From the sequence record NC_028448.1: a DNA stretch of 64,000 nt; one strand, written 5' to 3'. Every line of letters begins with the position of its first letter. Within the stretch, counting starts at the first letter, position 1. Source of the DNA: Escherichia phage slur14. Shown in pieces: positions 17,410-20,714 of the stretch. Below the pieces are notes generated by a model. The model worked only from the letters and a program-made list of their open reading frames with translations, ran no database searches and was not told where the DNA came from. The translations under genes were made by a program, and so were the position numbers.

Positions 17410-17688
17410 TCAAAATGTAATTTCTAACCAATCACCATCACGCTGATCACTATTAACTTTAAAGCTGAATCCTTCTTTTCTCAGCCAATCACCAATTTCT
17501 TCAGTAATCAATTTATCGCGAGCAGTACAATAATAATTAAAATGTGTTTTACCTTGTTCAGCTGCTTTATTAGCAAGTTCCGAAAAATCTTTAATAAAAC
17601 ACTCTAGCTTAAACTGTTTACTTTTGAATGCTTTTTCGCGTAATTGATTAGCAAAAGATTCATTTTCATAAAGATCATACTGTTCCAT
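17410..17688 (-). CDS. Hypothetical protein (24.2 position)
   Basis: 92 aa ORF, co-directional with rnlB. Confidence 0.5.
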   Translation of the reverse strand: MEQYDLYENESFANQLREKAFKSKQFKLECFIKDFSELANKAAEQGKTHFNYYCTARDKLITEEIGDWLRKEGFSFKVNSDQRDGDWLEITF

Positions 17689-17890
17689 TTTTCACCTTTT
17701 TATTAATATGTCTTTTTCTATAGACAACTTTTTCTCGAGTTTCAAATTTATTCTTAGCAGTCATAGCTCGAGCCCATAATACAGCCACTTCTTTTGCCTG
17801 TAAGTTCAATTCACGAGCAATTTCAATGAATGACTTTCCAGACTCATGGAGAGTAAACACCACAACCTCAGTTCTCATAATCAATCTCAT
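17675..17890 (-). CDS. Small putative helix-turn-helix protein (24.3 position)
   Basis: 71 aa ORF; HTH-like segment GKSFIEIARELNLQAKEVAVLWARA. Confidence 0.45.
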   Translation of the reverse strand: MRLIMRTEVVVFTLHESGKSFIEIARELNLQAKEVAVLWARAMTAKNKFETREKVVYRKRHINKKVKNGTV

Positions 17891-17944: not shown

Positions 17945-17975
17945 TTCAAAATGAAGAAAGGGGCCGAAGCCCCTT
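17945..17975 (-). terminator. Rho-independent terminator downstream of hoc
   Basis: On minus strand GGGGC-TTCG-GCCCC hairpin followed by tttcttcatttt. Confidence 0.6.
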
Positions 17976-17979
17976 ATGA

Positions 17980-19974
17980 TTATGGATAGGTATAGATGAT
18001 ACCAGTTTCTAAAGCAGTTTTATGAATGATGTATCCATTACGCGATTCTTGGACATCAACTTCTGGATAGTCTTTCATCATCTTCTGAAGAGTGTAACGA
18101 TGCAGGTAGTATTTACTATCTGGATCTTCAGTTTTCCAATCTTTACCTTCTTCGGTCATTTTTTGGATTTCATCCATAACCCACCAACCGCACCAGATGT
18201 AAGCTGAAGTGCGATGTGGAAGAGGATGAACATAAGGCAATTCACCTTCTGGTTCTGGAGCAACTTTATCAGTTACCTGAACTTGACCTTCTGCTGTGAT
18301 AGTTTTGCTATCATAATCAGTAGCAGTAACAGTTGCAGTAACTTCAATAGTTTGACTTCCAATAGATGATGTATCAACAGTGTATACATTAGTTGACCCT
18401 TCTACTGGAGAAGAATCTTTCTTCCATGAATATTCGATTTGTGCTTCTTCTGGAGCATCCGTAACATTAGCAGTAAATGTAGCCGAAGCATCTTGCTGAA
18501 CGTTAATAGAAGGAGGAGTCAATGTAACCCGTGGATTCATTGTTTTCTTATTAACAGTCAATGATACTTCATTAGAAGTAACTTCCTTTTCATTGTAATT
18601 TTCTGCAGTTACTTGCGCTACACACTTAACTGTTTTAGCTCCAACTGTGGTAGGAGTATAGTTAAATGTAGTAGTAGTTTCTCCATCGACCAGAGAACCG
18701 TCAACATACCACTGATACGTAGCAGACGCTCCTGGTGGCTGTGAAGCCAAGGCAGCAGTAAATTGAACTGGGGTTCCAATTACTGCTGCAGCAGGATTAG
18801 CAGGAGTTACGGCTAACGTAGTTGTCTGTGTTTTCTTATTAACTGTTAATGATACTTCATTAGAAGTAACTGTTTTTGCGTCATAATCTGTTGCTGTTAC
18901 TTGCGCTACGCATTTAATTCTTTTTACTCCACTTGTAGTTGGAGTATAGCTAAATGTAGCAGAAGTCGCTTCACCAATTTGAGAATCATCTACATACCAC
19001 TGATACGTAGCAGATGCCCCATCAGGTTGAGAAGCTAAGGCAGCAGTAAATTCAACAGCTGTTCCGATTACTCCGGCAGCAGGATTAGCAGGAGTTACAG
19101 ATAGGGTAGTCGTTTGTGTTTTCTTGTTAACAGTCAAAGATACTTCATTCGAAGTAACTTCCTTTTCATTGTAATTTTCAGCAGTTACTTGGGCTACGCA
19201 TTTAATTCTTTTAACCCCACTTGTAGTTGGAGTGTAATTGAACGTAGCATTAGTTTCTCCACCAACTTGTGAATCATCTACATACCACTGATACGTAGCA
19301 GATGCTCCTAGCGGCTGCGAAGCTAAGGCAGCAGTAAATTGAACTGGGGTTCCAATTACTCCTGCTGGAGGACTATCAGGAGTTACTGCCAAAGTAGTTG
19401 TCTGCTCCTTTTTATTAACAGTCAGTGATACTTCATTAGAAGTAACGCTTAGTGCATCATAATCTGTCGCAGTTACTTGAGCCACACACTTAATTCTTTT
19501 TACCCCGCTTTCGGCAGGAGTGTAATTGAACGTAGCGTTAGTTGCTTCGTCTACAGGAGAACCGTCAACGTGCCATTGATACGTAGCGTTTGCACCTGAT
19601 GGCTGTGAAGCTAAGGCAGCGGTAAATTCAATTGGAGTTCCAATCACTCCAGCATCAGGGCTATCAGGAGTTACTGCCAACGTAGTTGACTGAGTTTTAT
19701 TTTTAACCGTGATAGTCGTAGTAATTTCTGCTGTTTCGGGACTACTATCGGCAACTTGATTTGTTGCAACAACTTTAATTGTTTTTGTTCCAGCAGGTCC
19801 TTTTAATACATAATTAAAAGTTGCTTCAGCTCCATCTTGTGGAACATCATCTACGCTCCAAGCATATGTAATAGGTCCATCTCCAGTTTGACCACTGGGT
19901 GTAGCAGTAAACTGCTGAGTCTGATCTATAACTCCAGTGGTGTTTTTAGGAGTTATATCAACTGTAAAAGTCAT
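17980..19974 (-). CDS. hoc: Highly immunogenic outer capsid protein Hoc, expanded Ig-like domain array
   Basis: 664 aa; N-terminal Ig-like domain, four near-identical ~96 aa repeats, a further Ig-like domain, and C-terminal capsid-binding segment ...YIWCGWWVMDEIQKMTEEGKDWKTEDPDSKYY as in T4 Hoc. Confidence 0.85.
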   Translation of the reverse strand: MTFTVDITPKNTTGVIDQTQQFTATPSGQTGDGPITYAWSVDDVPQDGAEATFNYVLKGPAGTKTIKVVATNQVADSSPETAEITTTITVKNKTQSTTLAVTPDSPDAGVIGTPIEFTAALASQPSGANATYQWHVDGSPVDEATNATFNYTPAESGVKRIKCVAQVTATDYDALSVTSNEVSLTVNKKEQTTTLAVTPDSPPAGVIGTPVQFTAALASQPLGASATYQWYVDDSQVGGETNATFNYTPTTSGVKRIKCVAQVTAENYNEKEVTSNEVSLTVNKKTQTTTLSVTPANPAAGVIGTAVEFTAALASQPDGASATYQWYVDDSQIGEATSATFSYTPTTSGVKRIKCVAQVTATDYDAKTVTSNEVSLTVNKKTQTTTLAVTPANPAAAVIGTPVQFTAALASQPPGASATYQWYVDGSLVDGETTTTFNYTPTTVGAKTVKCVAQVTAENYNEKEVTSNEVSLTVNKKTMNPRVTLTPPSINVQQDASATFTANVTDAPEEAQIEYSWKKDSSPVEGSTNVYTVDTSSIGSQTIEVTATVTATDYDSKTITAEGQVQVTDKVAPEPEGELPYVHPLPHRTSAYIWCGWWVMDEIQKMTEEGKDWKTEDPDSKYYLHRYTLQKMMKDYPEVDVQESRNGYIIHKTALETGIIYTYP
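18541..19692. repeat. Four tandem ~288-bp direct repeats inside hoc
   Basis: Unit boundaries at 18541, 18829, 19117, 19405 (recurring tgttttctt(a/g)ttaac motif); each unit encodes one Ig-like repeat. Confidence 0.8.
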
Positions 19975-19983
19975 AAGTTATCC

Positions 19984-20664
19984 TTATTTTAATGTTACGA
20001 AAGAAGAATTGCGTGTTTCACGAATTAAAACTGATCCGTCACGGTTAATGTAATAAATTAAGCTAAATAAAGTTTGGTGTGCTGACGCATGCTCAAAACT
20101 TGTTGGGTGAGATTTCCAATCCGGAGTTTCAGCTATCCATTGATAAATCCACCAAGGAACAGTGCAGAATCCTGGATTTTTTCCAATCAGCTGAAGATTC
20201 GGACTAAAGTTTTCCGGAAGAGTAAATACAGACGGCTTTTCAGATTCAATAATCTCAGCTACAGCCTGCTCGAATTTTTCTTCAACAAAAGGAGTATCTT
20301 CAATCAAAACATCGGTATTTTCAGGAATTTTATCCGTTTCTACTACTTCAATTTTAATGTCAGATTTAACCGGAGAATCAATCAGAAGTGCTGCTTCTGG
20401 ATTGACTTCTTCATCGTCATATTTTAACCCCTCTGCAGCATCAGCAGCATCAATTAAGTCTTTAATAGATAACCCATCAGTCTCTGGCATAGGTTCACTA
20501 GCGAGCTTCTGGAGGGCTTCTTCAATATCATTAACGATATTATCAAAAGATTTATTCTTTTTGACCTTTATACCAAACTGTTCAGCATATTCAGCTAATT
20601 TAGCTTTAGCTTCTTTATTATCATCAAGAGCCTTCAGCTCTGCAATATAATCTTTATCTATCAT
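19984..20664 (-). CDS. inh: Inhibitor of prohead protease
   Basis: 226 aa ORF immediately downstream of hoc; size and position as T4 inh. Confidence 0.75.
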   Translation of the reverse strand: MIDKDYIAELKALDDNKEAKAKLAEYAEQFGIKVKKNKSFDNIVNDIEEALQKLASEPMPETDGLSIKDLIDAADAAEGLKYDDEEVNPEAALLIDSPVKSDIKIEVVETDKIPENTDVLIEDTPFVEEKFEQAVAEIIESEKPSVFTLPENFSPNLQLIGKNPGFCTVPWWIYQWIAETPDWKSHPTSFEHASAHQTLFSLIYYINRDGSVLIRETRNSSFVTLK

Positions 20665-20677
20665 AATATTTCCTCAG

Positions 20678-20685
20678 TATAAATA
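20678..20685 (+). promoter_or_regulatory. Late promoter motif TATAAATA upstream of uvsW
   Basis: Exact TATAAATA 30 nt upstream of uvsW ATG in the divergent inh/uvsW intergenic region. Confidence 0.45.
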
Positions 20686-20714
20686 TAGATATATTTATTA
20701 CATGGTATTTAGAC

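Follow-up and report, generated by a model that had tools for sequence, protein, structure and literature searches.

Hoc of phage T4 forms a 180-Å fibre present in 155 copies, it is dispensable in the laboratory, and the number of Ig domains strung together in its homologues varies and reaches 10 (PMC10385173). The protein serves as the display scaffold of T4 nanoparticle vaccines and as a model for the adherence of phages to mucus. T4 Hoc (PDB codes 5VF3, 8T1X and others) has 376 amino acids, encoded by 1131 bp, and contains three Ig-like domains, one of which is domain 2 (D2). The range described elsewhere is wider, with 1174 amino acids and 10 Ig-like domains in the Hoc of Serratia phage Muldoon and only two Ig domains in the short Hoc of phage PNJ-9, but these proteins are distant, come from other genera or lineages, and are set apart from the Hoc studied here by their descriptions. 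The difference that we report lies within a single genus, and comes about through a change in the copy number of one domain type.

The hoc gene of the T4-like coliphage slur03 (Tequatrovirus) encodes 664 amino acids, with four D2-type units and six Ig-like domains in place of the single D2 and the three Ig-like domains found in T4. It is not a new kind of system, as variable Ig number has been published and the sequence is already annotated as Hoc in GenBank; it is the longest form, among the matches listed, of a one- to four-copy polymorphism, real and fairly ordinary. We consider it very probable that the product is a six-Ig capsid fibre built on old, selected D2 paralogues, and that the one- to four-unit polymorphism arises via unequal crossover.

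The hoc locus and the architecture of its product

The gene occupies positions 17980–19974 on the minus strand of the window (the whole 64-kb stretch of DNA that was analysed) as a single intact ORF of 664 amino acids plus stop. It is 100% identical to slur03 and slur08 records labelled ‘Hoc-like head decoration’ or ‘PKD domain protein’. Its product matches PHROG 1149, ‘Hoc-like head decoration’ (E = 3.9e-172), and the PDB chains of T4 Hoc (E = 4.7e-209). The gene order around it, likewise found in the slur03 record, is the T4 synteny rnlB-24.2-24.3-hoc-inh-uvsW, so that hoc sits between inh and 24.3/rnlB in both phages, and the neighbouring ORFs match PHROGs for RNA ligase, the 24.2 and 24.3 families, the prohead protease inhibitor Inh and the UvsW helicase. 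An initial annotation had called the gene hoc and contrasted its 664 residues with about 376 in T4; these matches and the synteny bear out the name, and both lengths are correct.

Tandem Repeats Finder returned one array at 18541–19707 (period 288, 4.1 copies, 78% matches, score 1264), the sole long-period array within the window, and a repeat search gave four copies at spacings of 288/288/288 with 76–84% identity. In codon register the array spans 18547–19698 and consists of four in-frame 288-bp units, each of which encodes a 96-residue homologue of domain 2 of T4 Hoc. The four tandem 288-bp repeats of the initial annotation, placed there at 18541–19692, are thus confirmed to within ~15 nt, as is its attribution of the added length to copies of a central Ig-like module. 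D1, D3 and the capsid-binding domain at the C terminus are collinear with those of T4, and T4 Hoc aligned to the longer protein in two pieces, residues 1–189 and 177–376.

All domains are encoded on the minus strand. The single-copy, Ig-like domain 1 (amino acids 1–92, positions 19699–19974) aligns with T4 Hoc residues 1–92 and forms a β-sandwich at amino acids 4–91 of the AF2 model. It is followed by the four D2-type, Ig/PKD-like units: U1 of type ‘D’ (amino acids 93–188, 19411–19698; AF2 strands at 99–187), U2 of type ‘B’ (189–284, 19123–19410; strands at 194–283), U3 of type ‘G’ (285–380, 18835–19122; strands at 290–379) and U4 of type ‘E’ (381–476, 18547–18834; strands at 387–475), the last of which contains the best Pfam PKD stretch (388–457). 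Domain 3, again Ig-like and single-copy (477–570, 18265–18546), aligns with T4 residues 189–282, with Pfam Ig_3 and I-set matches at 481–565 and AF2 strands at 482–568. A linker and the C-terminal domain, capsid-binding by homology, complete the protein (571–664 plus stop, 17980–18264) with ~97% identity to T4 residues 283–376; amino acids 568–664 differ from T4 residues 280–376 by three substitutions and keep the Trp-rich IWCGWWVMDE motif, and PHROG 21694 matches amino acids 600–664 (E = 2.2e-41).

The AF2 model has a mean pLDDT of 83.5 and contains six β-sandwich blocks between amino acids 4 and 568, with block pLDDT values mostly of 84–95, and an α/β C-terminal domain of low confidence. Pfam PKD scores 65.2 bits on the protein (cutoff 23.5) over four stretches, and PKD_3, PKD_4, Ig_2 and Ig_3 likewise exceed their cutoffs. 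A Foldseek search of the PDB with the whole model returned only generic multi-Ig proteins, among them CEA, MDGA1 and E-cadherin, at TM-scores that are low because the Hoc chain is flexible; it supports the fold class, and the RB49 Hoc crystal structure did not stand out among the matches. The D2 unit also detects proteins that contain up to 38 tandem matches at ~30–38% identity, in the manner of the Ig/PKD/Big arrays of bacterial and phage surface adhesins. Such tandem-Ig adhesins are, however, cell-surface or tail proteins and not capsid-anchored monomers, and the likeness holds at the level of fold or domain family only.

Copy number of the D2 unit among T4-like phages

Among the Hoc proteins of Tequatrovirus four lengths occur, 376, 472, 568 and 664 amino acids, corresponding to one to four units, and the gene spans in phage records are 1131, 1419, 1707 and 1995 bp. 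The census is based on the matches listed and on 120 listed protein clusters, which include 78 of 376, 29 of 472 and 7 of 568 amino acids, the 664-residue clusters not being among those listed. The four-unit form is rare: among the matches listed it occurs in four phages, slur03 and slur08 (UK), FJ1 (Portugal) and Sfk20 (India), against ~650 matching records. No array of more than four units is present among the 160 matches listed, in which the longest span is 1995 bp.

In slur03 the unit types follow the order D-B-G-E. Ordered subsequences of this arrangement make up the shorter alleles D-B, D-G, D-E, B-E, H-B-E, D-G-E and D-B-G; the order is strictly kept in all 39 multi-unit alleles typed. 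The 472-residue alleles (for example ime09 and fPS-90) and the 568-residue alleles (for example T4_ev151, ESh36 and UGKSEcP1/2) share flanks, unit types and order with slur03, but have one or two units fewer and contain chimeric junction units (U2/U3, U2/U4). Alleles with just one unit, of type B, E or F, circulate as well. Taken at the sequence level, the D2 segment of T4-like coliphages is a one- to four-unit copy-number polymorphism with position-specific unit types. Literature searches found no explicit account of such a polymorphism, an absence that is no proof that it is unpublished. When a single 96-residue unit was searched against a representative library of 1.84 billion proteins, the top matches were giant multi-Ig proteins at 26–39% identity; close Hoc relatives were absent from the matches listed, and this search is therefore uninformative on copy number.

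The natural series of one to four Ig copies in near-identical backgrounds provides material for relating fibre length and valency to adherence, aggregation and immunogenicity, and it bears on the number of Hoc domains that the capsid tolerates. It also means that the reference T4 Hoc is just one allele of a recombining array, possibly a contracted one.

Fibre length and adherence

By homology, Hoc would be a monomeric capsid fibre anchored by its C-terminal domain, one to the centre of every gp23* hexamer and 155 to a prolate head, a position that we infer because the binding domain is near-identical to that of T4. The string of six Ig-like domains, composed of D1, the four D2-type paralogues and D3, would then point outward from the capsid. 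With three extra domains of ~4 nm the fibre would measure roughly 30 nm, as compared with ~18 nm in T4, and each would gain three further Ig modules, which are weakly adhesive. With ~155 such fibres, the head would gain reach as well as avidity for mucin glycans or bacterial surfaces, and the predicted function is that of a longer, more multivalent adhesive fibre. The initial annotation, too, had supposed that the number of domains could alter surface interactions.

In phage PNJ-9, the D2 residues S183, L184 and T185 bind MUC2 fucose (PMC11853027). All four slur03 units contain the corresponding SLT motif, a likeness at the level of the motif. The published mucin-binding site differs by phage, being located in D1 in PNJ-6 and in D2 in PNJ-9, with D3 implicated in T4, and extra D2 copies therefore need not mean extra binding. 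The additional domains might be neutral spacers or hitch-hiking length variation that has no selective meaning for adherence. Such inconsistent mapping, the dispensability of Hoc in the laboratory (PMC10385173) and the free variation of copy number among near-identical phages, for instance between fPS-90 and slur03, all speak for this explanation. We nevertheless regard it as rather unlikely: the four units are in frame and under purifying selection (dN/dS between units 0.09–0.27), all have preserved an acidic pI of 4.4–4.8, and ~0.86 kb of additional coding sequence has been kept despite a headful-limited genome.

Crossover junctions and the direction of change

Several shorter alleles contain units that can be divided at DNA level into parts of two slur03 units. 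Unit 2 of T4_ev151 agrees with slur03 U2 over its first 43 informative sites and with U3 over the next 17, so that 60 of 60 sites are concordant with a single breakpoint at unit nucleotides 219–228. Unit 2 of fPS-90, a phage whose hoc flanks are 98.6–99.8% identical to those of slur03 at nucleotide level, follows U2 and switches to U4 past nucleotides 219–231, while that of ESh36 follows U2 up to about nucleotide 57 and U3 thereafter. Every chimeric unit resolved in this way is deletion-oriented, with the front of an earlier unit joined to the back of a later one. The single D2 of T4 is itself a mosaic of U1-, U2- and U3-like segments.

We read clean junction units of this kind as the signature of unequal crossover. 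Alleles would interconvert by homologous exchange between units that are out of register, and such two- and three-unit alleles as were examined seem to have arisen by deletion from an array of four units. This signature suggests that the four-unit array is old and that the shorter forms, perhaps including that of T4, are contractions. Recombination had been foreseen in the initial annotation as a cause of expansion and contraction, and the junctions in related phages support it. The same annotation described Hoc as ‘expanded to six Ig-like domains’; the AF2 model agrees with the six domains, but ‘expanded’ may be backwards, given that the orientation of the junctions fits deletion.

A wider proposal, to which we assign a low probability, is that the D2 array is an ancient length and valency locus of at least four units, with alleles of one to four units sorted by niche, T4 Hoc a collapsed mosaic and the arrays of slur03, FJ1 and Sfk20 full. 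Frequent unequal crossovers at co-infection would generate the alleles, and selection by niche, such as mucus thickness or glycan type, would sort them. If this were true, the near-isogenic pair of slur03 (four units) and fPS-90 (two units) would allow the mucus-adherence (BAM) model to be tested directly for its dependence on fibre length.

Alternatively, the array may have been built up stepwise, through recombination of shorter arrays or divergent single-copy D2 alleles from co-infecting phages, and slur03 would then carry the derived, assembled form. Co-infecting phages of the T4 family are known to recombine freely, alleles with a single unit (type B, E or F) are available, and a unit type common to two arrays could serve for an in-register exchange, in which D-B-G and D-G-E would give D-B-G-E. 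We think this course of events doubtful. The unit order is conserved without exception in the typed multi-unit alleles, each chimeric unit resolved at DNA level points towards deletion, and pre-existing multi-unit arrays would still be needed to account for the order.

Divergence of the four units

The copies had been taken for near-identical in the initial annotation. This does not hold: pairwise identity among the four units is 74–84% at nucleotide and 72–84% at amino acid level, dS between them is 0.58–1.55, and the longest exact run common to any two is 36 nt. Variation is concentrated in the predicted loops, with a mean entropy of 0.59 as compared with 0.25 in the strands. The slur03 units are not each other’s closest relatives when units of other phages are included, and U3 is the one nearest to the single D2 of T4 (88.5% nucleotide identity). 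Judged from the sequences, the 288-bp units are four paralogues that diverged long ago, each of them under purifying selection.

Given this identity and the dS values, the array is no recent amplification, in which a T4-like Hoc with three Ig domains would have duplicated its domain 2 lately in the slur03 lineage, leaving near-identical and highly unstable copies. The head-to-tail layout with its exact 288-bp period and the single D2 of reference T4 could be cited in favour of such an event. We rejected it as very improbable, since dS among the units is higher than in a comparison of the hoc flanks of slur03 with those of T4 (0.27–0.43), the equivalent positions in other phages are occupied by counterparts with 94–100% amino acid identity to each unit, and the junction chimeras of shorter alleles have the earlier-front, later-back form that deletions predict.

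Reliability of the four-unit assembly

The slur03 genome was assembled with SPAdes from Illumina MiSeq 2×250 reads without long reads, and slur03 and slur08 share one slurry sample and are not independent. FJ1 and Sfk20 are independent isolates; they have 1995-bp hoc genes with the unit order of slur03, and each of their units best matches the slur03 unit at the same position (87.5–100% nucleotide identity). Since any two units share runs of at most 36 nt and differ at 16–26% of positions, the array has a unique solution with 250-nt reads and large k-mers. The concern of the initial annotation over assembly errors is hence weak, and mis-assembly of the four-copy array from a shorter hoc, by expansion or chimera formation, is hardly credible in view of the divergent units, the recurrence of the four-unit order in Portugal and India, and a frame unbroken through all four units.

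Sequence signals flanking hoc

No exact copy of the T4 late promoter, TATAAATA, was found on the minus strand upstream of inh-hoc, and upstream of inh there is only AATAAATA, with one mismatch. A Shine-Dalgarno-like AAGGA, read from the sequence at 19981–19985 (minus strand), is located 6 nt 5′ of the hoc ATG and overlaps the stop codon of inh. Downstream, a consensus scan identified a hairpin resembling an intrinsic terminator, AAGGGGCTTCGGCCCCTT, with a T-run after it, at 17958–17975 on the minus strand, 5 nt past the hoc stop. At the position equivalent to this hairpin, the fPS-90 record has an annotated terminator.

Identity and surroundings of hoc

The hoc reading frame (17980–19974, minus strand; 664 aa) encodes a Hoc protein, a member of a known family. 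It matches the PHROG ‘Hoc-like head decoration’ (E = 3.9e-172) and the T4 Hoc chains in the PDB (E = 4.7e-209), and scores above the curated Pfam cutoffs for PKD, PKD_3, PKD_4, Ig_2 and Ig_3. Over hoc, the window is 100% identical to Escherichia phages slur03 and slur08 (genus Tequatrovirus), which derive from UK cattle slurry, and the slur03 gene is already deposited in GenBank and RefSeq as ‘Hoc-like head decoration’. The capsid-binding domain at the C terminus is ~97% identical to that of T4 and keeps the tryptophan-rich motif, and the whole protein (pI 4.55; 4.4–4.8 for each repeat unit) is about as acidic as T4 Hoc (pI 4.74). The gene is intact, with a ribosome-binding site (AAGGA) that overlaps the inh stop codon and a terminator, a GC-rich hairpin with a T-run, located 5 nt past the hoc stop. 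It is flanked by rnlB (RNA ligase 2) and homologues of 24.2 and 24.3 on one side, and by the genes for Inh (prohead-protease inhibitor) and the UvsW helicase on the other, as in the T4 gene order.

The longest reading frame of the 24.3 homologue (17675–17890, minus strand) has 71 aa, and its start codon differs between records, with 67 aa (204 nt) annotated in slur03 and 56 aa (171 nt) in T4. The gap between inh and uvsW (20665–20714) spans only ~50 bp in slur03; at this position T4 has segE, a GIY-YIG homing endonuclease gene, and a homing endonuclease is likewise found in FJ1. The short gap fits the remark in the genome announcement that slur phages carry fewer endonuclease genes. The whole window contains 18 copies of the T4 late-promoter motif TATAAATA, versus 8.2 expected (0 of 100 shuffles reached 18), and one of them, at 20678–20685 on the plus strand, lies immediately upstream of uvsW. 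Our motif scan of the window found no perfect TATAAATA on the minus strand upstream of inh–hoc, where only the one-mismatch AATAAATA is present, near 20692–20699.

Repeat array and domain architecture

Tandem Repeats Finder identified a single long-period array in the whole window, at 18541–19707 (period 288, 4.1 copies, 78% matches, score 1264), and a repeat search returned four copies with a spacing of exactly 288 nt. In codon register on the minus strand, these units are U1 (19411–19698, aa 93–188), U2 (19123–19410, aa 189–284), U3 (18835–19122, aa 285–380) and U4 (18547–18834, aa 381–476). In alignment with the slur03 protein, T4 Hoc matches first with residues 1–189 and then with residues 177–376, which identifies the repeated module as T4 domain 2 (D2) and gives slur03 three extra copies. 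An AlphaFold2 model built from a 32-sequence alignment (mean pLDDT 83.5, block values mostly 84–95) contains six all-β modules (aa 4–91, 99–187, 194–283, 290–379, 387–475 and 482–568), followed by an α/β C-terminal domain of lower confidence, and a Foldseek search with this model returned multi-Ig proteins. The initial annotation was thus right about the six Ig-like domains and the four repeats of 288 bp. When U2 was used to query a representative library, the proteins P0121–P0270 were also retrieved, giant proteins (1,000–4,900 aa) in which as many as 38 tandem stretches match the D2-type Ig/PKD-like domain at ~26–39% identity.

Length classes and unit types in related phages

Comparison of hoc length across related phages gave span classes of 1131, 1419, 1707 and 1995 bp among the matches listed of 655 phage records with a nucleotide match. 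In a sample of 60 records, evenly spaced down the ranking of these matches, about 29 had a span of about 1131 bp, about 19 of about 1419 bp, and approximately one each of about 1710 bp and 1995 bp, the rest being partial matches. Among the matches listed, four units were seen only in slur03/slur08, FJ1 and Sfk20, and none had more than four. The best 120 protein clusters, counted without those of 664 aa, comprise 78 of 376 aa, 29 of 472 aa, 7 of 568 aa and 6 of off-size length. In several deposited records (e.g. MZ501066 FriedrichMiescher, MZ234042 PM107, NC_019399 ACG-C40, MH550421 T6), hoc is either split over two CDSs (‘Hoc part 1/part 2’) or one nucleotide away from an in-frame length, with a span of 1418, 1420 or 1132 nt; sequencing frameshifts or genuine hoc pseudogenes may explain them.

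The 118 Hocs of canonical length yielded 170 units, which clustered at 88% amino acid identity into 14 types, each denoted by a letter. The four-unit alleles read D-B-G-E (slur03, FJ1) and H-B-G-E (Sfk20). Three-unit alleles are H-B-E, F-B-E, H-B-G, D-G-E, D-B-G and D-B-J; two-unit alleles are C-A, C-B, D-B, D-E, D-G, H-B, H-E, H-A, D-A, F-A, B-E and C-K; single units are A (T4), B, F, E, I and a few singletons. All typed alleles keep the same order, a first-position type (C, D, H or F), then B, G, and then E or A, and every slur03 unit has counterparts in other phages that are 94–100% identical. The type K second unit of P0036 (472 aa) is far diverged from all other D2 types, even at otherwise conserved motifs, as if the domain had been acquired from a more remote lineage of phages. 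In P0001 (568 aa), the third unit (type J), judged from the protein sequence, seems to be of U3 type with an inner U4-type patch (VDGSLVDGETTTTF), which is more like a tract of gene conversion than the product of a simple crossover.

Age of the units and direction of change

The slur03 units share 74–84% nucleotide and 72–84% amino acid identity in pairwise comparison, and the longest exact run common to any two is 36 nt; the near-identical copies of the initial annotation were therefore not borne out. Between units, dS is 0.58–1.55 and dN/dS 0.09–0.27 (Nei–Gojobori), whereas the hoc flanks (D1; D3 plus C-terminal domain) differ between slur03 and T4 by a dS of only 0.27–0.43. The units are thus old paralogues, each under purifying selection. 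Across 130 distinct unit sequences, variation is higher in predicted loops than in strands (mean entropy 0.59 versus 0.25).

Several shorter alleles contain chimeric units. In the three-unit phage T4_ev151, the first 43 informative sites of unit 2 follow slur03 U2 and the last 17 follow U3 (60/60 concordant), with a breakpoint at unit nt 219–228, and unit 3 matches U4 at 100% identity. The two-unit phage fPS-90 has flanks 98.6% (D1) and 99.8% (D3 plus C-terminal domain) identical to those of slur03, and differs by 576 bp; its unit 2 follows U2 to nt 219–231 and then U4. Unit 2 of ESh36 (three units) changes from U2 to U3 at ~nt 57, and in ime09 (two units) U1 precedes a unit that is essentially of U4 type. 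The single D2 of T4 is a patchwork: nearest to U3 (88.5% nt), it includes segments that resemble U2 and U1. At the DNA level, every resolved chimera begins as an earlier unit and ends as a later one, the orientation made by a unit-deleting unequal crossover. Expansion or contraction by recombination, as initially proposed, is hence supported by the comparative data, although the copies are not near-identical.

Considered with the high dS among units, junction orientation points towards an old four-unit array from which shorter alleles arose by contraction, a direction that we consider somewhat more probable than not. Longer arrays could also have been built from shorter ones by recombination within a common unit type. 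An assembly artefact, a risk raised initially, is very unlikely: the 2×250-nt MiSeq reads of slur03, assembled with SPAdes, should resolve unambiguously an array with exact identity of at most 36 nt, and two independent isolates, vB_EcoM_FJ1 (Portugal, poultry sewage) and Sfk20 (India, lake water), have a 1995-bp hoc in which every unit is closest to the slur03 unit at the same position (87.5–100% nt).

Relation to known Hoc proteins and possible function

Copy-number variation of D2 is of the kind expected for tandem Ig-domain proteins. Fokine et al. (2023) described 650 Hoc homologues with strings of Ig-like domains of variable length, up to ten in phage Muldoon (PMC10385173), compared with six in slur03; Fu et al. 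(2024) reported a Hoc without domain 3 (PMC11853027), and the related record moskry annotates repeat regions within hoc. We found no explicit account of the one- to four-unit D2 series or of crossover junctions in the searchable literature, and both may be new. The hoc alleles offer a natural series for testing the effect of fibre length on phage adherence.

Each T4 head bears 155 copies of Hoc, a 180-Å fibre, with a single copy at every gp23* hexamer centre; Hoc adheres weakly to bacterial surfaces and mucin glycans, and it influences the dispersion of virions (PMC10385173; PMC9271167). With three extra Ig domains of ~4 nm each, the fibre would reach a length of ~30 nm and present multiple D2-type surfaces. 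The mapping of the mucin site varies by phage, to D1 in PNJ-6, to D2 in PNJ-9 (PMC11853027), and to D3 by mutation in T4 (PMC9271167). In PNJ-9 D2, an SLT motif was reported as the MUC2-fucose contact (PMC11853027). This motif is present in all four slur03 units and, as a candidate mucin-binding site recognized by sequence, serves as a lead only.
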